Part shown: one piece after another, positions 1 to 29,110 of the stretch
Layout: each line of letters opens with the position of its first letter
Numbering within the stretch: the stretch's first letter is position 1
Assembly: GCF_000014265.1 (NCBI RefSeq)
Contig: NC_008312.1
Span: 3,720,001 to 3,752,000, forward strand
Source of the DNA: Trichodesmium erythraeum IMS101
GTDB taxonomy: Bacteria; Cyanobacteriota; Cyanobacteriia; Cyanobacteriales; Microcoleaceae
Length of the DNA: 32,000 bases
Reading direction: 5' to 3'
Notes under the pieces: model-generated
What the model saw: only the letters and a program-made list of their open reading frames with translations
The model's database searches: none
What the model was told of the DNA's origin: nothing
Made by a program: the position numbers and the translations under genes

Positions 1-738
1 TCACCATTAGCTTATACAATTACAGGAATATTTTGGCTATTGGGAGGATACTTTTTAGTAGCTATTTTATTAGGACCAGATGGAATTATTCAACAAATTG
101 CTACTAGAGACCAACTAGGAATTACAGAACCGCCAGTCGATGCACCCTACGAATTTTTGAAGGCTTATCTGGGTATTATGGGTTCTCTTTCTTTATTTTT
201 ATTGCCTATGTTATCTATGAGTTTATATGCGGAAGAAAGAAAACGAGGCACTTTAGAATTATTAGCAACTTCACCTTTAACTAACTGGACAGTGGCAACA
301 GGAAAATTATTAGCTGTATTAACATTTTATATTTCTATGGTATTGCCATTGTTGGGTTTGGAGGCTATTGCTCTTAATGCAGCAAAGCCACCTATTTCAC
401 CACTTTTATTATTGTCAGGACATGGGGGTTTAATATTACTAGCTGCGGCGGTATTATCATTAGGAATGTTTGTTTCTTCTTTAACAGATAGTGCTATTTT
501 ATCTGCCATTCTGACATTTGCTTTGGTATTATTTCTCTGGGTAATTGATGTGGTAGCTAATGCTGTTAGTGGTCCTTTTGCACAGGCATTAAAACATTTA
601 TCTATGCTGACACATTACACTAATATTATTCAGGGACTTGTAGATACTGGCAGTATAATTATGTTGTTGAGTTATGTTGTTTTGGGAGTATTTTTAACTG
701 CTCAATCAATTGATGCTTTAAGGTTCCAACGTTCTTAA
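1..738 (+). CDS. ABC-2 family transporter permease (GldF-like), 5' end outside the window
   Basis: Frame 1 is open from base 1 (SPLAYTITGIFWLLGGYF...) to TAA 736-738. It has multiple hydrophobic helices and the YAEERKRGTLELLATSP motif typical of ABC-2 permeases. The TTG at 40 in the ORF track is probably internal. Confidence 0.8.
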   Translation, partial: SPLAYTITGIFWLLGGYFLVAILLGPDGIIQQIATRDQLGITEPPVDAPYEFLKAYLGIMGSLSLFLLPMLSMSLYAEERKRGTLELLATSPLTNWTVATGKLLAVLTFYISMVLPLLGLEAIALNAAKPPISPLLLLSGHGGLILLAAAVLSLGMFVSSLTDSAILSAILTFALVLFLWVIDVVANAVSGPFAQALKHLSMLTHYTNIIQGLVDTGSIIMLLSYVVLGVFLTAQSIDALRFQRS

Positions 739-7113: not shown

Positions 7114-7506
7114 ATGATAACCCGTAAAATAATCAAAACCGACAAAGCACCAGAGCCAGTTGGCCCTTATAATCAAGCGATCGCTGCCACTGGCCAAATG
7201 CTGTTTATCTCTGGTCAAATAGCGATCGACACCAAAACTAATCAAATAGTCTATAGGGAGGATGTAAGTAAGCAAACAGAGCAAGTCATGGCCAATCTCG
7301 AAGCTATCCTTACTGAAGCCAACACTAATTGGTCAAACGTCGTCAAAACTACAGTCTACCTGAAAAACATGGACGACTTCGCTACCGTCAATAATGTTTA
7401 CGCCAAATACTTCGACCCTGAGAACGCACCCGCTCGTGCTTGTGTAGAAGTAGCACGTCTACCCAAAGACGTACTTGTAGAAATTGACTGCATTGCTGTG
7501 ATATAG
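7114..7506 (+). CDS. ridA: RidA family (YjgF/UK114) reactive intermediate/imine deaminase
   Basis: 130 aa with APEPVGPYNQAI, SGQIAID and ARACVEVARLPKDVLVEIDCIAV, which is the canonical RidA length and motif set. Confidence 0.9.
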   Translation: MITRKIIKTDKAPEPVGPYNQAIAATGQMLFISGQIAIDTKTNQIVYREDVSKQTEQVMANLEAILTEANTNWSNVVKTTVYLKNMDDFATVNNVYAKYFDPENAPARACVEVARLPKDVLVEIDCIAVI

Positions 7507-12457: not shown

Positions 12458-13939
12458 ATGATTACAGGTGAACTAAAATCAAAAGTAGATAAGTTATGGT
12501 CGACGTTCTGGAGCAATGGTATTAGTAACCCATTGTCAGTTATTGAACAAATATCTTACCTATTATTTATTAAACAACTTGATCAGCAGGAAGCAGTTAA
12601 GGAGAAAAAAGCGCGACGGCTAAAAAAGGTAAAAGAAAAACTAATATTTTCAGAAGCATCACAAAGCTGTCGATGGTCTCACTTCAAGGAATTAGCAACA
12701 GATAAGATGTTTGAGGCTGTAAGGGATGAGGCTTTTCCTTTTATCAAAACTTTGGGGGGAACTTTAGAAAATAATGCCTACTCTCGACACATGAAGGATG
12801 CTGTATTTATGATAGGCAGCCCGGCATTATTGGCAAATGTGGTGCAACAAATAGATAGTTTACCCCTCGATGACCGAGATACTAAGGGGGACCTCTATGA
12901 ATATATGCTTTCTAAGCTGAATACTGCGGGGCAAAATGGACAGTTTAGGACACCGCGCCACATTATTAAGATGATAGTGGACTTGATGACACCCCAACCT
13001 AATGATGTCGTTTGTGACCCTGCTTTTGGTACGGCTGGGTTTTTGGTCGCCGTAGCAGAACATTTACAACAACTCAAGGATGAGAATGGTTCCTTAGTTT
13101 TGAATGCACCAGGAAACAAAGAGCATTTTTATCAGCATATGTTTCACGGTTTTGACTTTGATGCCACAATGTTGCGTATTGGTAGTATGAATTTAATGCA
13201 GCATGGTATTGAAAATGCTCAAATTGAAGCGAGGGATGCTTTATCGGAAGACCACGCGGGGGTTGAGGAAATGTTTACTTTGGTTTTGGCTAACCCACCG
13301 TTTAAGGGGTCGATACAAAAGTCAAGTATTGCTAAAGATTTAACTAAAATTGTTAATACTACTAAAACAGAGTTGTTATTTTTGGCTTTATTTTTAAGGT
13401 TATTAAAAACGGGGGGTCGGGCGGCGGTTATTGTGCCTGATGGGGTTTTATTTGGTTCTTCTAAAGCCCATAAAGATGTTCGTAAGATGTTAGTTGAAGA
13501 GCATAAGTTAGATGGAGTTATTTCTATGCCATCGGGGGTTTTTAAACCTTATGCGGGGGTATCAACAGCGATTTTAATGTTTACAAAAACGGGGGCGGGT
13601 GGTACTGATTTTGTTTGGTTTTGTGATATGCAGGCGGATGGTTTTTCGTTGGATGATAAACGGCAACCTGTAGAAGAAAATGACATTTCTAATATTACTA
13701 AAAGTTGGCAAAAACGGAATCCTAAAAAAGATAAGGACCGGAATAGTAAGACGTTTTTTATACCGAAGGATGAGATAAAAGATAATGGTTATGATCTTTC
13801 TATTAATAGATATAAAGAGGTGGCATACGAGGAGATAGAATATGAGCATCCTTTAGTAATTTTAGGTAAGTTACGAGAATTAGAGGATGAAATTAATCAA
13901 GATTTGGATGAGTTGGGGCAGTTATTAAATGGAGATTAA
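12458..13939 (+). CDS. hsdM: Type I restriction-modification system, N6-adenine DNA methyltransferase subunit M
   Basis: 493 aa with an HsdM_N-like start (LWSTFWSNGISNPLSVIEQISYLLFIK), motif I VCDPAFGTAGFL and motif IV LANPPFKG. Confidence 0.95.
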   Translation: MITGELKSKVDKLWSTFWSNGISNPLSVIEQISYLLFIKQLDQQEAVKEKKARRLKKVKEKLIFSEASQSCRWSHFKELATDKMFEAVRDEAFPFIKTLGGTLENNAYSRHMKDAVFMIGSPALLANVVQQIDSLPLDDRDTKGDLYEYMLSKLNTAGQNGQFRTPRHIIKMIVDLMTPQPNDVVCDPAFGTAGFLVAVAEHLQQLKDENGSLVLNAPGNKEHFYQHMFHGFDFDATMLRIGSMNLMQHGIENAQIEARDALSEDHAGVEEMFTLVLANPPFKGSIQKSSIAKDLTKIVNTTKTELLFLALFLRLLKTGGRAAVIVPDGVLFGSSKAHKDVRKMLVEEHKLDGVISMPSGVFKPYAGVSTAILMFTKTGAGGTDFVWFCDMQADGFSLDDKRQPVEENDISNITKSWQKRNPKKDKDRNSKTFFIPKDEIKDNGYDLSINRYKEVAYEEIEYEHPLVILGKLRELEDEINQDLDELGQLLNGD

Positions 13940-14432
13940 TCTGCAAAAGGAGGAGTTTAGTTATGCTTATATTTGAGGGGTTGCTACTGTGGCGGGTTGT
14001 GTTTTTCAAGGAACTACTCCCCCTTTAGATGGGTTGGGAATTGATTTAATTTTAACTTGATTAAAATCACGACTACCAGAAAATTTTCCGATTCTTTATG
14101 TGCTGGTAAAATGTAATTCTAGGGGGGTTATTAATGATGATATTGTCCCCTTTCCTTTGTCTGTGAAAAACTATAATGATTTGAGGGTAATTAATCGTTA
14201 TCCGCGGATAATTTTTATTGTTGTGGTTGTGCCGGAAAAGGTGGAGGAATGGCTACTAAAATCTGAATCATCTCTTTGTTTTCTAGGTTGTGGTTATTGG
14301 TTATCTTTGGCGGGTGCTGATGTGACGAAAAATCAGGATAATATTACTGTTTCAATTCGGAGAAAAAATATGTTTAATCCTCAAGTTTTAGAGGGAATTA
14401 TGGAGAAGGTTTGGCAAGGGGATATGTTATGA
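13929..14432 (+). pseudogene. DUF4365-like (PD-(D/E)XK fold) gene with two in-frame TGA codons
   Basis: ATG 13929 overlaps the hsdM stop by 11 nt. The single frame runs to TGA 14430-14432, with internal TGA at 13974-13976 and 14058-14060 and no frameshift. Conceptual product: MEINLQKEEFSYAYI*GVATVAGCVFQGTTPPLDGLGIDLILT*LKSRLPENFPILYVLVKCNS...IIFIVVVVPEKVEEWLL...GYWLSLAG. Confidence 0.55.
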
Positions 14433-14965
14433 ATTTTATTGTTAAAGATATTAATTTATTTAATAATATTCAGCGGGAAGTTGTGGCTAATTATTTGGAA
14501 TAAGGAGGTTGGAAGCAGCAAAGACTGATTGAAAATGAGGGGATAATTTGGGGTAAGAATGGGGTAGATTTTTCTAATATGACTTTGGTTTTACTATTGA
14601 ATCAAGAGGTTGCAGATTTTCTTTTAAGTATTAATTTATTGGTGGAAAATTTGGCTAATTTTGAGGGGATAACTGAGTTGGAAATTTTGCTAAAGTTAAT
14701 GACTAATTTGCCTAATGTGGAGATACAGGGGTTAATTGTGGGGATAAGGTCACCAGAAGGTGATATACTTAGTGGAGATGTTGATTTTATGGGGGTGGTT
14801 ATGAATAAGTTGGAGAGGATAAAAATGGTATTATTTGATAGGGATTATGTTGTGGGAATTAGGGCTGATCAGGAGCGTTTGCCTGTGTTATTTGGGGGGG
14901 ATTTGGTGAAGGGACATAATGGTTTTGTTTTGAAAAATGTTTGTAATTTTGAGGTGGATAAGTAG
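14429..14965 (+). pseudogene. Unknown-family gene with one in-frame TAA, start overlapping the upstream stop (ATGA)
   Basis: ATG 14429-14431 overlaps TGA 14430-14432. A 179-codon frame runs to TAG 14963-14965 with an internal TAA at 14501-14503. Product: MNFIVKDINLFNNIQREVVANYLE*GGWKQQRLIENEGIIWGKNG... continuing into track ORF 14579-14965. Confidence 0.5.
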
Positions 14966-15022
14966 GATGGGGAAGGAGTTAGGAATTGAGTTTTTTTTTG
15001 TTGAGTTGAAGGGATTAATTGG

Positions 15023-16231
15023 ATGAAATGGCAGCGTGTTTTTGTTGAAGATGTAGCTAAAATTGTAACTAAGGGAACTACTCCTACTTCTATAGGTTTT
15101 AGCTTTTCTAAAGAAGGTATCCCTTTTCTACGAGTCAATAATATCCAAGATGGTAAAATCAATCTTGGTGATGTTTTATTTATTGACTCAAAAACGGATC
15201 AAGCTCTTGCGCGTTCTCGAATTTTAAAAAAAGATGTAATAATTTCAATTGCTGGTACAATTGGAAAAACCGCAGTTATTCCTACTAATGCTCCAGCAAT
15301 GAACTGCAACCAGGCACTTGCAATAATAAGGCTTCACAATAATGTAGACCCCTACTATTTTAACCATTGGCTGAATACAGGAGATGCGTTTCGACAAATT
15401 ACAGGTTCAAAAGTGACAGCAACTATTTCTAACCTAAGTCTTGGTTGTATCAAAAAGCTCAAAATCCCCCTCCCCCCAATAGAAGAACAGCGCCGAATAG
15501 CTGCAATACTCGACCAAGCTGATGCTATCAGACGAAAGAGACAACAAGCGATCGCTCTAACAGATGAATTATTGCGTTCTACATTCCTGGAGATGTTCGG
15601 CGACCCTGTTATTAATCCGAAGGGGTGGGAGGTAAAAAAATTAGAGGAAGTTGCATTAAAACGCAAGGGGGCTATAAAATGCGGACCTTTTGGTAGCCAA
15701 CTACTTATAAGCGAGTTTGTCAAAGATGGTATTCCAGTATACGGAATAGACAATGTTCAAAAAAATGAGTTTGTTTGGGCCAAACCCAAGTATATTACTA
15801 CTGAAAAGTACGAGCAATTAAAAAGCTTTTCTATCCAGGATGAGGACGTTCTGATTTCAAGAACTGGAACAGTTGGAAGAACTTGTGTCGCACCACCTGA
15901 TATCCCTAGAAGTATCCTTGGACCTAACTTGCTGAAAGTTTCCTTAAATACTAACAAAATGCTTCCTAAATATTTGTCCTATGCTTTAAATCACTCTAAT
16001 CCCCTGATTGAAGAGATAAAAAGAATGTCACCAGGTGCTACAGTTGCAGTTTTTAACACAACAAACCTTAAAGCTTTGAGGTTAACAATTCCCCATATAA
16101 ACCTGCAATCCCAGTTTGTCAACTTTACTGAAAATGTTGAATTGACAAAGCAAAAAGAGTCTAACTACCTCACAGAATCCAACAACCTATTTAACTCCCT
16201 GTTACAACGCGCATTCAAAGGCCAACTATAA
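15023..16231 (+). CDS. hsdS: Type I restriction-modification system specificity subunit S
   Basis: 402 aa with two target-recognition halves separated by the central conserved helix PLPPIEEQRRIAAILDQADAIRRKRQQAIALTDELLRSTFLEMFGDP, and a C-terminal conserved helix ending LLQRAFKGQL. Confidence 0.93.
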   Translation: MKWQRVFVEDVAKIVTKGTTPTSIGFSFSKEGIPFLRVNNIQDGKINLGDVLFIDSKTDQALARSRILKKDVIISIAGTIGKTAVIPTNAPAMNCNQALAIIRLHNNVDPYYFNHWLNTGDAFRQITGSKVTATISNLSLGCIKKLKIPLPPIEEQRRIAAILDQADAIRRKRQQAIALTDELLRSTFLEMFGDPVINPKGWEVKKLEEVALKRKGAIKCGPFGSQLLISEFVKDGIPVYGIDNVQKNEFVWAKPKYITTEKYEQLKSFSIQDEDVLISRTGTVGRTCVAPPDIPRSILGPNLLKVSLNTNKMLPKYLSYALNHSNPLIEEIKRMSPGATVAVFNTTNLKALRLTIPHINLQSQFVNFTENVELTKQKESNYLTESNNLFNSLLQRAFKGQL

Positions 16232-16247
16232 TAAAAGGAAAAAACCC

Positions 16248-19200
16248 ATGACCTCAAACTTTGACTTTCTCAAACCCCACTACCCCAAACTACACCAAAC
16301 CGCCACCCAGGCAGAAACATTAATCAACAACGCCCCCCGGGCCAGTTGCTTCTACACCCGCTACACCTTAGAACAAGCGGTTATCTGGCTCTACGAAAAT
16401 AATCCTTACCTAGAGCTCCCCAAGACCTACAACTTAGGGGCATTAATTCACGAGCAAACCTTTAAAGACAACCTCCAAAACAACCTTTTCCCCAAACTCC
16501 GCATCATTCACAAAATAGGCAACGCAGCAGCCCACGACCCCAAACCCATCACCTCCAAAGATGCTCGTTACCTCATCCAAGAACTCTATCACTTCCTCTA
16601 CTGGCTCACCCGCTACTACAGCCCCGACGGCAAAAACCTCCCTAACCTCAAATTCAACCCCGACCTCATTCCCACAAGCACAACTAAGTCAGACCTCACC
16701 CTCGATAAACTCCAACAACTCGAAACCCAACTTTCTACCGCCCAAGAAATGCAACGCATCGCCGAACAAAAAGAAAAACAAACCACCGCAGAACTAGAAA
16801 CAGCAAAAGCCGAACTCGCCCAACTCAAACAACAAAACCAGACCAAAAGCGATCGCCACGACTACAACGAAGCCGATACCCGCACCTACTTACTTGATAT
16901 TTTACTCAAAGAAGCTGGTTGGCCGATACATCTGCCAGAGTCTACAGAATACCAAGTCACAGGAATGCCTAACGAAACAGGAAAAGGTAAAATTGACTAT
17001 GTATTTTGGGGAGATGACGGCAACCCTTTAGCAATAGTAGAAGCAAAACGCACTCGCAAGAGTCCCCAAACAGGACAACATCAAGCCAAACTATACGCCG
17101 ACTGTCTGCAAGCAGAATTTAACCACCGCCCCGTCATTTTCTACAGCAACGGTTATGAGCATTGGATATGGGATGATTTTAACTATCCACCCCGCCCCAT
17201 TCAAGGCTTTCTCAAAAAAGACGAACTAGAGCGTTTAATATTCCGCCGGAGTCATCGTCAACCCCTCCATACCCTGGATGTCAACCCCGACATCGCCGGA
17301 CGTTGTTATCAAAAAGAAGCTATCTGTTGCATCAAAGAAATATTTGACAACAAACAGCGTAAAGCATTATTAGTCATGGCAACAGGAACAGGTAAAACTC
17401 GGACAGCCGTCAGTATTGTAGAATTATTGGAACGAGCCAACTGGGTGAAACGAGTCTTATTTTTAGCGGACCGCAACGTCCTCTTAACTCAAGCCCAAGG
17501 TGTCTTTAACAGTAACCTTAACAGTATTACCACTGCAAACCTAACCGAAAAAAAACAAGACGCAGAAAACGCCACCATTGTCTTTTCCACCTACCCCACC
17601 ATCAGCAACCGCATCAACGCAACTGATGGAGATAAACGCTTATTCAGTCCTGGATATTTTGATTTAGTTATAGTAGATGAAGCACACCGTTCCATCTATC
17701 GCAAATATCGGCAAATATTTCAATATTTCGATGCTCTACTTTTAGGTTTAACAGCTACACCCCGCAATGAAGTAGACCGGGACACTTACAGTATTTTTGA
17801 CTTAGAGCCTGGGGTTCCCACCTTTGCTTATGAATTAGACAGCGCCATCAAAGACGGTTATCTCGTTCCTCCCAGTGGTGTCGAAGTTCCCTTTAAGTTT
17901 ATGCGGGCAGGTATTAGATATTCAGAACTGCAACCAGAGGAAAAGACAGCCTATGAGGAACGGTTTGCTGATGCAGAAACTGGGGAAGTGCCGGACAAAA
18001 TTAATGCTACAGCTCTTAATACTTGGTTATTTAATATTAGTACCGTAGACCAAGCGCTACAGTTATTAATGGAGCGGGGGCTAAAAGTAGAAGGAGGCGA
18101 TCGCCTCGGTAAAACCATCATTTTTGCTCGCAACCACAAACATGCTGAGTTTATTTCTGAACGGTTTAATGCTAATTATCCCCACTACAAAGGTCAGTTT
18201 GCTCAAATTATTGATAGCCAAAGTTCCTACTCTCAAAGTTTGCTGGATGACTTTTCAAATGCAGACAAACAGCCAATTATTGCGGTGTCTGTAGATATGT
18301 TAGATACAGGGGTAGACGTGCGGGAAGTAGTTAACTTAGTATTTTTCAAACCAGTCTATTCTCGGATAAAATTCAATCAAATGATTGGACGCGGTACTCG
18401 TTTATGCCCTAACTTATTTGCTCCGGGTGATGATAAAACAGAATTTTTAGTATTCGACCTGTGCAGTAACTTCAGTTATTTTGAGCAACAGATAGACGAA
18501 AAAAATGTAAAAATTCCTGACAGTCTCACAACAAAATTAGTCAAATCACGCCTTGAACTGAGTCAATTAGTACCCACTGGCGAGTTAAAAAATAACCTCT
18601 TAGATGAGTTGCATCAATATATTAACTCAATGCCCAAAGATAACTTTTTAGTGCGCCCCCATTTGCAGCAAGTAGAAGAGTTTTCCCAGAGAGAGCGATG
18701 GAATGAGTTAGGAGAAAGCGATCAAGAAATAATAGGGGAGTCATTAGCAAGTTTACCCAATGGTTTACCAAAAGAGAGCCATTTAAATAAACGGTTTGAC
18801 CTAATATGTGTCAAATTACAGCTAGCATTGTTAAAACAGTCAACAGACTTTATCAGACTCCGGGATAATATTCGAGATATTTGCTCTCAACTCGCCCAAA
18901 AGTCTAACATTCCCATGATAGCAGCAAAACTACAAGTTATTGAAGAAGTACAAGCAGAGGAATGGTGGCGAGATATTACAGTAGAAATGGTTTCAATTTT
19001 ACAGCAAGACTTACGAGAATTAGTAAAATTTATAGATAGCCAAGAACAAAAAATTATGTATGTAAACTTTGCCGATGAAATGGGAGAAGTGCAAAATGTC
19101 AACGTTCCCACCCAAACATCAGGGTTTAGTCCTCTCCAGTATAAGAAAAAAGTAGAGGCATATATTCGGAGTAATGAGAACAATGTTGCTGTTGCTAAAT

Positions 19201-19607
19201 TAAAACGTAATATCCCCTTAACCGACGCTGACTTAACAGCATTAGAAGAAATGTTATTTAATAGTGAAGTTATAGAAGATAGGGAAATATTTGCCGAAGT
19301 TTACGGTCAAAATATTAGTTTAAAACTATTTATTAGAAAGTTAGTCGGATTAGATAGAAATGCAGCCAAAGAATTATTTAGTAAATATTTAAACAGCAAA
19401 TTTAACACCAGTCAAATTAGATTTGTTGAGAATATTATCGACTATTTAACTCAAAATGGAGTGATGTCCCCAGAATTATTATATGAGCCACCTTTTACAG
19501 ATTTACACACGGAAGGATTAGATGGTATCTTTGCAGATAAAGAGGCAGATAACATTATTGAGATATTGACAGAGATTAATGAAAGTGTTGATTATGACGT
19601 AGCTTAG
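16248..19607 (+). CDS. hsdR: Type I restriction endonuclease subunit R with N-terminal DUF4145-like domain
   Basis: 1119 aa. AAGGA lies about 10 nt upstream of ATG 16248. Domains in order: DUF4145-like LRIIHKIGNAAAHD, a coiled coil (aa ~150-200), a PD-(D/E)XK nuclease KIDYVFWGDDGNPLAIVEAKRT, and helicase motifs MATGTGKTRTA, VIVDEAHRS, LGLTATPRNE and MIGRGTR. Confidence 0.95.
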   Translation: MTSNFDFLKPHYPKLHQTATQAETLINNAPRASCFYTRYTLEQAVIWLYENNPYLELPKTYNLGALIHEQTFKDNLQNNLFPKLRIIHKIGNAAAHDPKPITSKDARYLIQELYHFLYWLTRYYSPDGKNLPNLKFNPDLIPTSTTKSDLTLDKLQQLETQLSTAQEMQRIAEQKEKQTTAELETAKAELAQLKQQNQTKSDRHDYNEADTRTYLLDILLKEAGWPIHLPESTEYQVTGMPNETGKGKIDYVFWGDDGNPLAIVEAKRTRKSPQTGQHQAKLYADCLQAEFNHRPVIFYSNGYEHWIWDDFNYPPRPIQGFLKKDELERLIFRRSHRQPLHTLDVNPDIAGRCYQKEAICCIKEIFDNKQRKALLVMATGTGKTRTAVSIVELLERANWVKRVLFLADRNVLLTQAQGVFNSNLNSITTANLTEKKQDAENATIVFSTYPTISNRINATDGDKRLFSPGYFDLVIVDEAHRSIYRKYRQIFQYFDALLLGLTATPRNEVDRDTYSIFDLEPGVPTFAYELDSAIKDGYLVPPSGVEVPFKFMRAGIRYSELQPEEKTAYEERFADAETGEVPDKINATALNTWLFNISTVDQALQLLMERGLKVEGGDRLGKTIIFARNHKHAEFISERFNANYPHYKGQFAQIIDSQSSYSQSLLDDFSNADKQPIIAVSVDMLDTGVDVREVVNLVFFKPVYSRIKFNQMIGRGTRLCPNLFAPGDDKTEFLVFDLCSNFSYFEQQIDEKNVKIPDSLTTKLVKSRLELSQLVPTGELKNNLLDELHQYINSMPKDNFLVRPHLQQVEEFSQRERWNELGESDQEIIGESLASLPNGLPKESHLNKRFDLICVKLQLALLKQSTDFIRLRDNIRDICSQLAQKSNIPMIAAKLQVIEEVQAEEWWRDITVEMVSILQQDLRELVKFIDSQEQKIMYVNFADEMGEVQNVNVPTQTSGFSPLQYKKKVEAYIRSNENNVAVAKLKRNIPLTDADLTALEEMLFNSEVIEDREIFAEVYGQNISLKLFIRKLVGLDRNAAKELFSKYLNSKFNTSQIRFVENIIDYLTQNGVMSPELLYEPPFTDLHTEGLDGIFADKEADNIIEILTEINESVDYDVA

Positions 19608-19792: not shown

Positions 19793-20176
19793 CTAATCTT
19801 TTCTACTATTGAATAAGGCACAACCGCCTAAAAACAGAAAACCTCCGACAGTAATTAAATTATTTTTATGACTAATTAAGCCGATATTGTAATTACATTT
19901 TCTTGAGAAACGATAAGAACTTTGATACTCACAAATTGTAGTTTTGTAAAACCACAAAGTTCCTAGCATTGTAACTAAACCAATAGTAACGAGACCTTCT
20001 GGTATGTGAGTTACCTTAAGCCATTCTGGAATTTTGAATTTACTACTACTAGACTCAAGTTTCCTTATTGGTGTAAATTTTTTCTTACTGCCAGGTTTAG
20101 GGCCTGGGCTTTCTTCCAGTTCAGGTTTCAGTGGAGGCGGTGGTGGTGGTGGTGGTAGTGGTAGTTTTTTGCTCAT
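19793..20176 (-). CDS. Hypothetical membrane protein with N-terminal poly-proline tract
   Basis: 127 aa with ATG at 20176-20174. It starts MSKKLPLPPPPPPPPLKPE and has two hydrophobic segments (GLVTIGLVTMLGTLWF, TVGGFLFLGGCALF). No family recognised. Confidence 0.45.
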   Translation of the reverse strand: MSKKLPLPPPPPPPPLKPELEESPGPKPGSKKKFTPIRKLESSSSKFKIPEWLKVTHIPEGLVTIGLVTMLGTLWFYKTTICEYQSSYRFSRKCNYNIGLISHKNNLITVGGFLFLGGCALFNSRKD

Positions 20177-20325: not shown

Positions 20326-20901
20326 CTATTGTAAAACCTTCAGAAACTCAGCTAACCATCTAGGAATAGCAGGCCAAGCAGGTCCAGTAACAAGAGAACC
20401 ATCCACGAACGCTTCATCAACTGAAACTTCAACGTATGTACCCCCTGCAAGAGTCACCTCAGGAGCACAAGCAGGATAGGCAGTGCAGCGCTTTCCTTTA
20501 AGTACATCCGCAGCAGCTAAAACCTGCAAACCATGACAGAGAGCAGCAATAGGCTTCTTCTTTGAATCAAAGTGGCGAACAATATCCAATACTTTTTCAT
20601 TCAAACGAATATATTCTGGCGCACGTCCCCCAGGAACCACCAAAGCATCATAAGCATCATAGCTTTCTGGATCAACATCATCAAAACTAGCATTCAGCGT
20701 AAAATTATGTCCCGGTTTCTCACTATAGGTTTGATCACCCTCAAAATCATGTACCGCTGTTCTGACTATATCTCCTTTCTTTTTATCAGGACAGATAGCA
20801 TCAACTTCATGCCCCACCATTTGCAATGCTTGAAAAGGTACCATCACCTCATAGTCTTCTACAAAGTCACCCACGATCATTAAAATCTTCTTTCCCGTCA
20901 T
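20326..20901 (-). CDS. DJ-1/PfpI family protein (type 1 glutamine amidotransferase-like)
   Basis: Motifs [13 protein letters not shown] and the nucleophile elbow [14 protein letters not shown] 20901-20899 has GAGG about 8 nt upstream; the track's TTG at 20907 is two codons further up. Confidence 0.9.
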
Positions 20902-21261
20902 CTTCAACTACCTCATAAAAAAGTGAAAGTTTAAATTTTATTTATTCTACAACACCTATACAATTTTCGCGCTCACTAGGTAAAACCTAGTAATGCCTCC
21001 TCAAAGATATTTGCTTCTTGCTTCAACCGCAAGAGGCCAACCTCTTCCAATTTACAAGCATAAATTATGGTACAGCCTACCCTATTTCTTTGATTAACTT
21101 CCCCGTAGTGATATCAAACCAGCACTATATTTAAGTCCTGGTATATTCCAATTCCAGGGCAGTTAAAAGTAAAGCACTAATTCAGTTATTAGTTATCAGT
21201 AGTTTTCTTGCCTCAAAGTAGCGATCGCCAATTTCCGCCTCAAATTCAACCCTCAGAATTC

Positions 21262-21410
21262 TATCGACCTCCGTATTCGAGACCGATAAAATCCAACTTT
21301 TAACCCCTTACCTCTTAGTTCTTACATTTGACTTTTGACCTTTAACTTATCAACTTCCGTATTTGAAACCAATAAAATCTTACCTTTAACTTTTGACCTT
21401 TGACTTTTAA
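21262..21410 (-). repeat. Duplicated unit of a 10-bp-stem hairpin followed by a CYTTTRA heptamer tract
   Basis: Hairpin A1 is TATCGACCTC/cgtattc/GAGACCGATA at 21262-21288. Hairpin A2 is TATCAACTTC/cgtattt/GAAACCAATA at 21348-21374. Heptamer tracts lie at 21297-21352 and 21383-21410 (CCTTTAA CTTTTGA CCTTTGA CTTTTAA). Confidence 0.65.
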
Positions 21411-21510
21411 CACTCCGGTGATAGCTAGTCAGGCTAGATGTCAGAGAACAGTCAAAATAACCAACCACACTACCACCATTACATATTTTAAATCAAGTCT
21501 TCAAAAAAAA

Positions 21511-23316
21511 TCAATCTAATCGTAACACCGCCATAAAAGCTTCCTGTGGAACATCAACCGTACCCAAGGACTTCATCCGCTTCTTACCCTTAGCCTGTTT
21601 TTGTAATAACTTCTTCTTACGGCTAATATCCCCACCATAACACTTAGCCAAGACATCCTTCCGTAAAGCAGGAATATGCTCACTAGCAATAACCTTAGAA
21701 CCAATAGACGCTTGAATTGGTACCTTAAACTGATGACGGGGAATTAACTCCTTCAACTTTTCCGCCAAAGCCCGGCCTACCCCATAAGCCTTATCCCGAT
21801 GCACAATTATAGCCAAAGCATCCACTGGTTCAGCATTAATCATAATATCCAACTTAACCAAAGGATTCTCACGATAACCTATAAGATGATACTCCATACT
21901 AGCATAACCGCGAGACCGAGACTTCATTTGGTCGAAAAAATCCGTAACCACCTCTGCCAAAGGAATCTCATATACTAAAGTAGTTCTACCCTGAGCCAGA
22001 TACTTCATATCCTTAAATACCCCCCGTCGTGACTGACCCAGCTCCATTAACGTCCCTACATATTCCTCTGGAGTAATCATTTCCACCCGAACATAAGGCT
22101 CCTCAATTTTTTCTCGCAAATTAGGCTCCGGCAAGAAATTTGGGTTATCAACCAAAATCACCTCCTCCTTACTAGTAGTTACCTGGTAAACCACCGATGG
22201 AGAAGTAACAATCAAATCTAAACCATATTCTCGCTCCAACCTTTCCTGGACAATTTCCATGTGCAGCAGTCCTAAAAAGCCACATCGAAATCCAAAACCC
22301 ATAGCACTCGACGTTTCTGCCTCATAAGACAAAGCTGCATCATTAAGTTTAAGCTTATCCAATGCTTCTCGTAAATCTGGAAACTGGTCAGCATCAGTAG
22401 GAAATAATCCACAAAACACCATAGGGTTAGCTGACCTGTAACCTGGCAGAGGATCCTGAGCCTGTTTTTTGGCCAAAGTAATCGTATCTCCCACCCTTGC
22501 ATCTTCCACCGCCTTAATAGCCGCCGAGAAATAACCAACCTCTCCTGCATGAAGCTCCTGTACTGGTTGTTGAGTTGGAGACAAAACTCCTAGATCATCT
22601 ATCTCATATTCCTTTTTAGAAGCCATAAGTCGGACGCGATCGCCCTTAGCAATAGTCCCATCCATAACCCGGAAATATACAATTACCCCTCTATAGGAGT
22701 CATAATAACTATCAAATATCAGGGCCCGTAATTTTTCACCTATAGTATCTTGTGGTGGTGGTACTAACTGAACAATGGACTCTAAAATTTCCGGAATTCC
22801 TATTCCTTCTTTAGCAGAAGCTAAAATTGCACCCGAACAGTCTAAACCAATTATTTCCTCTATTTCCTCTTTTACCCGTTCTGGTTCTGCCCCTGGCAAA
22901 TCTATCTTATTTAAAACCGGGATAATTTCTAAATCATGCTCCAAAGCCAAATATACATTAGCTAAAGTCTGAGCCTCTACCCCTTGGGAAGCATCTACCA
23001 CCAACAAAGCACCTTCACAAGCCGCTAAAGAACGGGATACTTCATAAGAAAAATCTACATGACCAGGTGTATCAATAAGATTTAAAACATATTCTTCCCC
23101 ATCTTTAGCATGGTAATTCATTCGGGCAGCCTGGAGTTTAATTGTAATGCCACGCTCCCTTTCTAAATCCATCGTGTCTAAGAATTGCTCTTTCATTTCA
23201 CGGTCTGCCACCGTACCGGTTGCTTGTAGTAAGCGATCTGCTAAAGTTGATTTTCCGTGGTCTATATGAGCAATAATGGAAAAATTACGAATATGAGATA
23301 CAGGAACTTTTGTCAT
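21511..23316 (-). CDS. lepA: Translation elongation factor 4 (LepA/EF4)
   Basis: 601 aa with [32 protein letters not shown], and the LepA-specific C-terminus ...[28 protein letters not shown]. Confidence 0.98.
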
Positions 23317-27452: not shown

Positions 27453-28199
27453 TTAAATTTTACCAAATCTACGTTCACGCTTCTGATAAGCACACAAAGC
27501 CCGATGAAATTCATAACGATTAAAGTCAGGCCAAAGTGTCTGAGTGACATAAATTTCTGAATAAGCCATTTGCCATAGTAAAAAATTACTAATACGCATT
27601 TCCCCACTAGTACGAATTAATAAATCTGGGTGAGAAATACCAGCAGTATAAAGGTATTTTTCAAAAAGTCCTTCATTAATTTCTTCTGGCTTAAGCAAAC
27701 CTTTTTGTATTTGGGTGCCGATCGCCTTACAAGCGTGTACAATTTCCTGGCGTCCTCCATAATTAGTAGCGACAGTAAATTTAATTCCCTGATTTGGCCG
27801 AGTCATCTCCATTGAGTGTTTAATCTCAGCTTGTAAAGATACAGGCAAAGAACTTAAATTACCCACAAATCTAATTTGAACATCTTCTGCGACTATCTCT
27901 TGCAGTTCTTGGCGCAAAACTTTTTCAAACAAAGTCATCAGAAAATTCACTTCTTCTAGTGGTCTTCCCCAATTTTCACTAGAAAAAGCGTAAGCTGTTA
28001 AAGCTTCTAGACCCCAATCTCTACAACATCGCAGTAAGTCCTTAAGTGTTTCCACTCCCTTTCTATGGCCCATAATTCGAGGTAAACCACGACTTTGAGC
28101 CCAACGACCATTACCATCCATAATCACAGCCACATGATGAGGTAACCTTTCTGGTTCCAGATCGACAGGTAAATCTTGTAAGCAAGTTCCTTGATTCAT
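27453..28199 (-). CDS. uppS: Isoprenyl transferase (undecaprenyl-diphosphate synthase family)
   Basis: Motifs [24 protein letters not shown] and [19 protein letters not shown] 28199-28197 overlaps the cdaA stop 28198-28196 (ATGA), so I prefer it to the upstream in-frame ATG at 28241. Confidence 0.93.
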
Positions 28200-29110
28200 C
28201 TTTTCTTTCGAGGACCTGATGGACTTTGATGAAGTACCCATGAAATTAATTGTGATCCTTTTGATCCTATTTGACGTCCAATATTAACTAAAGGAAGTGA
28301 TTTTGTACTTTTTTCACTACCTGATAGAAATAGACGTTCCTCTAATAACTCTTTTAGTCTATTACTTGTTAAGGGTCGATTCAAAATTCCTTTTTCAGCT
28401 AGAGAGATAGAACCGGTTTCTTCAGAGACAACTATACAGAGACATTTTTCCACTTGTTCAGTAATTCCCATAGCTGCTCTATGACGAGTCCCTAATTGCC
28501 TTGAGGCTATTTTCTCAGACAAAGGTAGAATTACACCTGCTGATATAATTTTGTGTTCTCTAATTAAGACGGCCCCATCGTGTAATAAAGTTTTTGGCTG
28601 AAATATAGTTTGTAATAGCTCCTTAGAAAGTTCAGCATTTAATTTTACACCAGGTACAGAAAAATCTCTTTCATCTATCAGTCCATTTGTTTCTATAATT
28701 AACAATGCACCTATCCGGTTTTGGGACAGTTGTTTGATAGATTCTACTATCTCATCAATAATATTATTTGATTCAGGGAGAACTCGGCGATTATGTCCAA
28801 ACATTTGGATAATTTCTCCCTGTCCCAACTGTTCGAGAAACCTACGAAATTCTGATTGTAATATGACTGCCATTGACACAGCAGAGCCAATAACTAAATT
28901 TTGAAGAGCAAAACTTAATAGTTTTAGATCAGCCAAATGACTTAGAGCCGAAGCTAACATTAAGACAATAAAACCTCTTACCATCCATAATGCACGACGT
29001 TCCCCTATGATGACCAACACCATATATATCAGAGCGAGAACCAGTCCAATATCGATACTATGTAGCAATAAGGACTTCATATCGATACTATTTCGGAATA
29101 AGGACTTCAT
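28196..29110 (-). CDS. cdaA: Diadenylate cyclase CdaA (membrane-anchored DisA_N domain)
   Basis: Three N-terminal TM helices, then [18 protein letters not shown] and [12 protein letters not shown]. Two in-frame ATGs (29110 and 29080) arise from a 30-bp tandem duplication. Confidence 0.92.

Follow-up and report, generated by a model that had tools for sequence, protein, structure and literature searches.

In a 32,000-nucleotide (nt) stretch of Trichodesmium erythraeum IMS101 DNA (NC_008312.1, positions 3,720,001 to 3,752,000; hereafter, the window), we found that the genes on the two sides of hsdS, the specificity gene of a predicted Type I restriction-modification operon, carry strong synonymous codon biases of opposite sign, with an excess of guanine (G) on the + strand to the left of hsdS and an excess of cytosine (C) to its right. 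The same left-G/right-C flip recurs across this HsdR clade, in about 44 non-redundant operons from cyanobacteria, and the skew is upheld by a selection-like fixation bias, not by a local mutational bias, because recent substitutions erode it on both arms. The operon lies between a PAS-adenylate cyclase gene and lepA and comprises hsdM, hsdS, and hsdR, all on the + strand (Table 1). In our Pfam assignments, (i) hsdM matches PF02384 at 6e-66 and PF12161 at 3e-17; (ii) hsdS contains two PF01420 stretches, corresponding to two target-recognition domains (TRDs); and (iii) hsdR has an N-terminal DUF4145, an HSDR_N nuclease domain, a motor of superfamily SF2 matching ResIII/DEAD/Helicase_C, and an EcoEI-type C-terminal domain. 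Judged by these domains, which are those of the three subunits, the operon is predicted to be a Type I restriction-modification system with an EcoEI-like HsdR.

In sliding 300-nt segments, the + strand GC skew began to climb at ∼13.2 kb, reached +0.79 at 14750-15049, lay near 0 across hsdS, and fell to its lowest value, -0.565, at 16400-16699; the rest of the window, outside 12.9-17.8 kb, ranged from -0.44 to +0.31 (standard deviation, 0.16). An initial annotation of this DNA had reported extreme skews of opposite sign inside one co-directional operon, and these are real: all five of its 60-nt hand counts were exact on recount (G21/C1 at 14761-14820, G17/C3 at 14641-14700, C25/G5 at 16261-16320, C21/G3 at 16441-16500, and G10/C10 at 15181-15240), and, as it had argued, neither the present replication direction nor the transcription direction explains the sign flip. 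At third codon positions, the GC skew (GC3 skew) of successive hsdM quarters was +0.35, +0.22, +0.80, and +0.83; from 13208 on, hsdM has 0-3 third-position C (C3) per 50 codons, and its 3' half is rich in third-position G and T (G3 and T3). The window hsdS showed a GC3 skew of -0.15 at a third-position GC content (GC3) of 0.31. Successive sixths of hsdR showed GC3 skews of -0.78, -0.60, -0.64, -0.02, -0.02, and -0.14, with 26-33 C3 and 2-5 G3 per 50 codons in the first 150 codons; this C3-rich, G3-poor bias is strongest at 16248-16850 and has faded by ∼17900. The annotation had also placed the skew far beyond the normal bacterial range. This stands for the local extremes, which surpass other genes (C3 0/179 in casB, a gene between hsdM and hsdS; -0.78 in the hsdR 5' part), but less so at the whole-gene level, where the C-rich block stands out more than the G-rich one because lepA (on the - strand), the DJ-1 gene, and an open reading frame (ORF) at 40-738 reach coding GC3 skews of +0.5 to +0.58. 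Elsewhere in the window, a RidA-like gene (7114-7506) has a GC3 skew of -0.41, and genes on a related Okeania contig span -0.42 to +0.77.

The opposite biases are carried by synonymous sites. Two-fold pyrimidine codons showed a C:T ratio of 6:48 in the left block versus 39:8 in the right block, and at four-fold sites C accounted for 1/86 in the 3' half of hsdM and 58/85 at the 5' end of hsdR, and G for 31/86 and 3/85, respectively. The codon choice first described, G- or T-ending in the left block and C-ending in the right one, was thus accurate, and amino-acid composition is not its cause, because two-fold and four-fold sites themselves carry the opposite biases. The rule on the left is to maximize G and minimize C (GGG, CGG, TTG), and that on the right is to maximize C and minimize G (GGC, CGC, CTC). 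A pure keto/amino rule (G+T versus A+C) was dropped, since the four-fold boxes of hsdR show no preference for A-ending codons. A shift in the first position of leucine codons (TTR, 0.60 to the left of hsdS and 0.14 to its right) follows the third-base preference and does not discriminate between models, and long-range RNA pairing between the hsdM 3' and hsdR 5' regions was also set aside, its pairing probability being ∼0.38 by our own rough estimate, equal to that of generic sequence.

Orthologous operons were collected by exact-protein look-up and by scanning metagenomes with an HsdR N terminus specific to the clade, with ORF-based gene calls in the metagenomic loci, yielding 44 non-redundant operons with an HsdR at least 56% identical to that of the window (L-numbers below label the compared loci and contigs). 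The clade is cyanobacterial, and its operons have the order hsdM-(cassettes)-hsdS-(cassettes)-hsdR. The first 200 codons of hsdR showed a median GC3 skew of -0.52 (interquartile range [IQR], -0.63 to -0.41; n=54), the last 200 codons of hsdM a median of +0.53 (n=19), and hsdS a median of +0.02 (n=39), with other ORFs on the same contigs at 0.00 (IQR, -0.12 to +0.11; n=173). An outgroup came from a full-length HsdR scan of genome contigs, whose matches were mostly non-cyanobacterial; among the matches listed, about 90 HsdR homologs from other phyla (40-52% identity) had skews near 0. The hosts of the pattern span 35-54% GC, and in some members the bias is far stronger than in the window, as in the hsdR of L004 (A:G 179:14, four-fold C 0.73) and the hsdM of L126 (A:G 5:52, four-fold G 0.71, C:T 9:67). 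Moreover, four-fold identity between diverged members equals the expectation from composition alone (0.54 versus 0.54; 0.47 versus 0.49), a saturation which indicates that the bias has been independently maintained and not inherited. Literature searches for an existing explanation returned nothing specific, and a conserved mirror codon skew around hsdS is apparently undescribed.

The sign of the bias follows the side of hsdS on which a gene lies. Among unrelated genes inserted in the operons, skew was positive in 17/19 cases to the left of hsdS (median, +0.33) and negative in 32/41 cases to the right (median, -0.25; Mann-Whitney p=4e-8), and Uma2 nuclease genes had a skew of -0.68 on the right in L116 and +0.41 on the left in L131. 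In L180, a second Trichodesmium-clade operon, five genes to the left of hsdS, including DUF4365, casB, a PIN gene, and a C3-free ORF of 58 codons, ranged from +0.43 to +1.00, with hsdS at -0.08, the hsdR 5' part at -0.79, and the adjoining thiC at +0.09. The bias is strongest next to hsdS and fades with distance: after subtraction of a GC-matched outgroup baseline, the skew of hsdR was -0.55 at the 5' end and about -0.15 at the 3' end, and that of hsdM was +0.63 and +0.41 close to the 3' end, falling to +0.23 farther upstream. It stops at the end of the operon, as genes past hsdR (57 on the + strand and 41 on the - strand) had a median of about 0, as did upstream genes on the opposite strand; only tightly linked, co-oriented upstream genes were biased. 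Furthermore, the mean third-position spectrum on the left (A.18 C.13 G.39 T.30) is a near-perfect complement of that on the right (A.23 C.44 G.14 T.19), other genes having A.27 C.21 G.21 T.30, and, relative to other genes (0.43), GC3 is elevated in the arms (0.56-0.61) and depressed in hsdS (0.34).

Nowhere in the window is the skew more extreme than in casB (G3 62, C3 0), which together with casA fills the hsdM-hsdS stretch 13929-14965; both are pseudogenes in IMS101 that remain in codon phase. The casA ATG overlaps the hsdM stop codon, the repaired casA matches DUF4365 positions 1-138 of 139, and casA has 4/168 C3 and a skew of +0.83. Intact casB copies accompany the same truncated DUF4365 in L171, L178, and L179, whereas both casA (167 amino acids) and casB are intact in L180 and L181, and casA is intact in L169 as well. 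The casB product has no match in Pfam or NCBIfam, and NCBIfam returned nothing for either cassette protein; the casB family is limited to Oscillatoriales-like cyanobacteria (Okeania, Hormoscilla). An intact casA-casB pair, with skews of +0.62 and +0.80, also lies on a mobile or phage-like element (L169/L170, 1-13116) that encodes PolB, dUTPase, RNR with an intein, Bro-N, ArdA (anti-restriction), DUF932, and a reverse transcriptase. This cassette was captured from an hsd operon, because the last 31 hsdM codons still precede casA on the L169 element. Synonymous sites among casB copies are unsaturated; copies outside the operon are less skewed, stepwise, the more distant they are (+0.77, +0.44/+0.32, and +0.28), and, compared with the operon copy, the one on the mobile element is on balance poorer in G (54 versus 32) and richer in C (34 versus 7). 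These comparisons fit a cassette skew that would be maintained inside the operon and decay outside it. The idea of a skew intrinsic to the gene, raised by L169 and L172, is weakened by the hsdM remnant and the unsaturated synonymous sites.

Recent substitutions run against the skew. There were no HsdR relatives at 71-99% identity to the window, and we therefore polarized changes within population groups from the metagenome scan, using three groups of close hsdR alleles (18 sequences) and singleton third-position changes in codons 1-700; the minority state is taken as derived in this scheme, and assembly errors may be included. The hsdR singletons comprised 78 C>T versus 34 T>C changes (p=4e-5) and 103 changes from C versus 43 to C (p=7e-7), whereas G>A and A>G were balanced (18 versus 15). 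The equilibrium implied by this spectrum is a GC3 of 0.35 and a skew of +0.04 (bootstrap, -0.29 to +0.38), as against an observed skew of -0.46. On the left arm, the samples were small: four hsdM alleles had 9 G>A versus 1 A>G and 3 C>T versus 5 T>C; eight Trichodesmium alleles gave 12 changes from G versus 4 to G and 10 to C versus 2 from C in the same arm, and cassette differences polarized with the L169 outgroup showed that L171 had lost G five times and gained it once. The hsdS gene sits at mutational equilibrium. Strand-specific hypermutation of the deamination type, one of the explanations first offered for the skew, is contradicted by polarized substitutions that oppose the skew on both arms and by the persistence of the pattern in saturated orthologs. 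The C->T-type stops cited in its favor are not borne out by the one that can be polarized, in casB: codon 25 encodes Glu or Lys in intact casB homologs, the L171 nucleotide at 14501 is G, and the casB stop is a window-derived G>T change (GAA->TAA). Nor does the locus resemble kataegis or APOBEC-like mutation, given its raised GC3, a flux that erodes the skew, and the G>T origin of the casB stop.

The gene at the center of the flip is one that strains exchange. All close strains have different hsdS genes: strains 98.5-99% identical in the arms carry unrelated alleles whose TRDs are 20-32% identical. In many further close pairs, one TRD or both are different, and the central and C-terminal regions of hsdS are conserved while the TRDs vary. 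The left junction lies ∼22 nt before the hsdS ATG (∼15000-15004), where the L171 alignment ends at 15004 with an unrelated hsdS downstream, and the right junction lies ∼50 nt before the hsdS stop (∼16182), where the L084 alignment starts. Moreover, the first 500 nt of hsdR beside a swapped hsdS are more diverged than the remainder (3.4% versus about 1%; in further pairs, 2.6% versus 0.2-0.8% and 14% versus 5-8%), and this adjoining hsdR DNA is co-imported. These alignments identify hsdS as a recombination hotspot, exchanged as a whole between strains by homologous recombination. Junction-proximal C/G differences, considered as repair scars or mutation bursts, proved to be shared recombining haplotypes, that is, ordinary imported polymorphism. 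The earlier suggestion that the operon is built of modules with different histories therefore holds for hsdS and the adjoining hsdR DNA, which are imported, but not for donor codon usage as the source of the skew. In T. erythraeum 21-75, hsdS is missing from the same locus (L176, 8590-14924), which retains hsdM, the cassette, ORF104, and an intact hsdR; the system there should be unable to recognize DNA.

We tentatively favor, at somewhat less than even confidence, the reading that the skew is a strand-asymmetric fixation bias arising from recurrent recombination centered on hsdS, with a break and a polarity that we infer. A recurrent break at or beside hsdS would initiate recombination, and 5'->3' resection would expose the + strand as single-stranded DNA on the left and the - strand on the right. 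Either (i) heteroduplex repair would keep G on the invading 3' tail, which would amount to a strand-asymmetric GC-biased gene conversion (gBGC), or (ii) selection would act for G-rich invading tails. The outcome would be a + strand G excess on the left and a C excess on the right, both of which would fade with distance and reach no farther than the homology, whereas a heterologous hsdS, forming no heteroduplex, would be exempt; the bias would be a by-product of, or an adaptation for, hsdS-centered recombination. Such a model would jointly explain the mirror symmetry, the raised GC3, the gradient, and the exemption of hsdS, and it would also explain why the bias stops at the end of homology and why the hsdR flux is imbalanced for C/T but not for G/A. 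A further proposal, which we hold a little more loosely, is that the operons carry the footprint of a bacterial recombination hotspot, written by recurrent gene conversion from breaks with a fixed 3'-tail polarity, with the flanks serving as dedicated arms for rapid swapping of restriction specificity.

Known systems resemble the hsd pattern in part. Human meiotic double-strand break hotspots combine a single-stranded DNA geometry with flanking, mirror-image strand asymmetry (Hinch et al. 2023, PMC7615360). The hsd operons share with them the mirror asymmetry, the kilobase scale, and the affected strand, + on the left and - on the right, as expected of 3' tails after resection; however, the human case is a mutational signature in rare variants, whereas the hsd skew is a shifted synonymous equilibrium opposed by mutation, in a bacterium with no known programmed breaks here. 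Recombining bacterial genes have a higher GC3 (Lassalle et al. 2015, PMC4450053), and the arms likewise combine raised GC3 in recombining DNA with AT-biased mutation and an opposing fixation bias. In contrast, gBGC in its described form is strand-symmetric (PMC4450053 never mentions skew), whereas the hsd arms favor G on the + strand on the left and C on the right; gene conversion, if responsible, would be of a strand-asymmetric kind. Exchange of Type I hsdS genes and TRDs has been described, for example in Xylella (preprint 10.1101/2022.09.01.506293), and, as there and in the pneumococcal phase-variable systems, specificity genes here are replaced by homologous recombination through conserved flanks; there is no recombinase here, and there are no inverted hsdS copies. 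No report of a compositional signature in the flanks of an exchanged hsdS was found in the literature searched. Replication-associated GC skew also flips sign along one strand, and the hsd polarity is terminus-like (+ to -), but replication skew is chromosome-scale, weak, and common to all DNA, whereas the hsd skew extends over 5-7 kb, reaches 0.8, and is confined to the co-oriented genes of one operon, with flanking genes of both orientations at a median of about 0 and right-hand spacers at -0.05. Vertebrate mitochondrial DNA has a genome-wide strand-composition gradient that is mutational and stems from single-strand exposure in replication. It shares with the hsd arms a third-position order of C>A>T>>G on one strand, a G/T-rich complement on the other, and a gradient with position, but the hsd skew is local, sign-flipping, and unsupported by the mutation spectrum.

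Several observations weigh against the recombination reading. No break at hsdS was observed in this sequence-based analysis, and junction-proximal differences resemble ordinary imported polymorphism and not repair scars. ORF-free spacers are far less skewed than third positions (+0.27 on the left, -0.05 on the right), codon position 2 is the same as in GC-matched outgroups, and hsdR avoids the rare A-ending codons ATA, CGA, AGA, and GGA, all of which fit codon-level selection. Conversion simply biased at G/T mismatches does not account for the depletion of the complementary base in the most extreme members (A:G in L004 and C:T in L126, as given above). Furthermore, the first quarter of hsdM is less skewed than the ParB-like gene that precedes hsdM (+0.5), the skew is absent from three members of the clade (L106, L132, and L104), and the left-arm flux test comprises four alleles (p=0.04).

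Some of these points would be expected of a translational or mRNA-level programme, which we consider a possible but doubtful cause. Under it, the upstream genes would use wobble-decoded, G/T-ending codons, with slow translation and a G-rich, Shine-Dalgarno-like mRNA, and the downstream genes would use Watson-Crick-decoded, C/A-ending codons, with fast translation and a G-poor, unstructured mRNA, thereby setting the HsdR:HsdM ratio, timing, or mRNA stability. The concentration of the bias at synonymous sites, with position 2 unchanged and the right spacers unskewed, its restriction to co-oriented operon genes, and the shunning of the four rare codons by hsdR are consistent with this, and the flux data demand a selection-like force. 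Some housekeeping or abundant-protein genes are C3-rich as well (phycobiliprotein, -0.44; cysK, -0.52), and low-expression-type genes are G3-rich. However, the bias of hsdR exceeds that of the phycobiliprotein gene: among a handful of reference genes, the four-fold boxes of the latter prefer T (T 0.49, C 0.25), as compared with C 0.54-0.73 in hsdR, although those of cysK have C 0.61. Nor would the strongest codon selection in a genome be expected in defense genes of low expression. Moreover, the gradient has hsdS at its center, and its gene-relative direction in hsdM is the reverse of that in hsdR; hsdS, a stoichiometric partner, has no bias; and one nuclease family is biased oppositely on the two sides. 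Relaxed selection does not explain the G enrichment of hsdM, given an A/T-rich mutational equilibrium, and the G/A flux in hsdR is balanced despite a preference for A.

A chimeric origin, in which the blocks were acquired horizontally from donors with different codon usage and have yet to ameliorate, is improbable. It draws on the demonstrable import of hsdS and adjoining arm DNA and on the hsdR 5' part (GC3 of about 0.6), which is alien to an AT-rich Trichodesmium while the 3' third is host-like, and it probably accounts for the raw skew of the window exceeding that of typical clade members. Nevertheless, the left-G/right-C pattern recurs in hosts of widely differing GC content with saturated synonymous divergence, the skew is uncorrelated with locus GC, and no known type of donor genome gives adjacent, co-directional genes opposite skews.

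Less probable still is a local, strand-specific mutational bias, whether by deamination or hypermutation of single-stranded DNA, by convergent transcription with R-loops, or by break-repair mutagenesis, that would act on the + strand to the left of hsdS and on the - strand to its right. Its geometry and base classes would resemble the single-stranded tail asymmetry of meiotic hotspots and the strand gradients of mitochondria, the spacer before hsdS is free of C, and amino-acid usage shifts slightly in the same direction. Against this stand the recent polarized substitutions, which erode the skew on both arms, and the per-site rates on the + strand of hsdR, where C>T exceeds G>A, the reverse of what is required. 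In addition, the C-rich block has raised, not lowered, GC, the casB stop is a G>T change, and the pseudogenes retain C at codon positions 1 and 2; a promoter and terminator scan of the locus found promoter-like sites at chance level, and Rfam gave no matches.

Selection on sequence features, namely avoidance of restriction sites that are GC-containing palindromes or selection on G-run/C-run (G-quadruplex) structures, the latter among the causes first proposed, is largely refuted and very improbable: although such palindromes are depleted beyond codon usage in many loci and runs of four or more G are slightly enriched in three hsdM genes, palindrome avoidance predicts an arbitrary sign, yet the sign follows position, the depletion is inconsistent between loci, G3+/C3+ runs match the expectation from synonymous shuffling, and canonical G-quadruplex motifs number 0 in nearly all arms, unlike what a G-run recombination initiator of the pilE type would show.

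If the recombination reading is true, the hsd operons would be, as far as we found, the first bacterial case of break-repair polarity recorded in the equilibrium composition of flanking genes, and gBGC would be extended to a strand-asymmetric form; sign-flipping synonymous skew would then provide a sequence-only detector of bacterial recombination hotspots and cassette-exchange loci, such as surface antigens and the specificity genes of defense systems. Were the translational reading true instead, the operons would hold an unusually strong, position-coded codon programme balancing the modification and restriction arms, a regulation problem that is still open for Type I systems outside E. coli. 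On either reading, low-abundance defense genes apparently make up the two gene sets with the strongest bias in these genomes, which challenges the use of codon bias as a routine proxy for expression or foreign origin.

The coordinates of the operon, its arms, and other skewed genes are collected in Table 1.

Table 1. Features of the 32,000-nt window, with positions counted from its first nucleotide
Feature	Position	Strand	Remarks
hsdM, Type I methyltransferase subunit	12458..13939	+	Pfam HsdM_N + N6_Mtase
casA, full-length DUF4365 (nuclease-like) pseudogene	13929..14432	+	In-frame TGA at 13974 and 14058
casB, 178 codons, pseudogene	14429..14965	+	In-frame TAA at 14501 (three-frame translation)
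Non-coding spacer before hsdS	14966..15022	+	Contains no C
hsdS, specificity subunit	15023..16231	+	Pfam Methylase_S; unskewed, AT-rich
hsdR, restriction/translocase subunit	16248..19607	+	DUF4145 + HSDR_N + ResIII + EcoEI_R_C
Left arm	13200..15022		+ strand G excess, maximum +0.79
Right arm	16100..17900		+ strand C excess, down to -0.565
Ordinary genes with strong positive GC3 skew	20326-23316	-	
Ordinary gene with strong positive GC3 skew	27453-28241	-	
Ordinary gene with strong positive GC3 skew	40-738	+	

Ordinary genes can be strongly skewed in either orientation: lepA, DJ-1/PfpI, uppS-like, and membrane-protein genes have coding-strand GC3 skews of +0.4 to +0.58 on either strand, and G3 and C3 usage varies widely from gene to gene in the Trichodesmium genome. 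Within hsdR, codons ∼750-930 (window ∼18500-19040) are richer in G3 than their neighbors in essentially every HsdR homolog, including non-cyanobacterial ones, which marks a family-wide effect of amino-acid or codon context that is separate from the clade skew. GC-containing palindromes of 4 and 6 bp are rarer than codon usage predicts (z -2 to -3.9) in the window arms, L086, L088, and L099, a depletion that fits general restriction-site avoidance in cyanobacteria and is absent from L112 and L126.

The gaps beside hsdS are favored by small genes of the nuclease or toxin-antitoxin type (in L073, L087, L088, L112, L116, L126, L131, and L180), comprising DUF4365, DUF559 (Vsr-like), Uma2, YhgA/Rpn-like Transposase_31, PIN, DUF433-HTH, and DUF2442. 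Upstream of hsdM, at a distance of 90 nt, lies a conserved ORF with ESIAVVGLIEPL (1986-2726 in L112 and 13-606 in L116), which is also G3-rich (+0.54 and +0.47, respectively) and could be a further member of the operon; Pfam gave no match at E<=0.001, and the label ParB-like was given by appearance only. Just 3' of hsdR, on the - strand, a 127-amino-acid ORF (19793-20176) without a Pfam match begins with nine prolines (MSKKLPLPPPPPPPPLKPE...) and is kept in the contigs of other strains.

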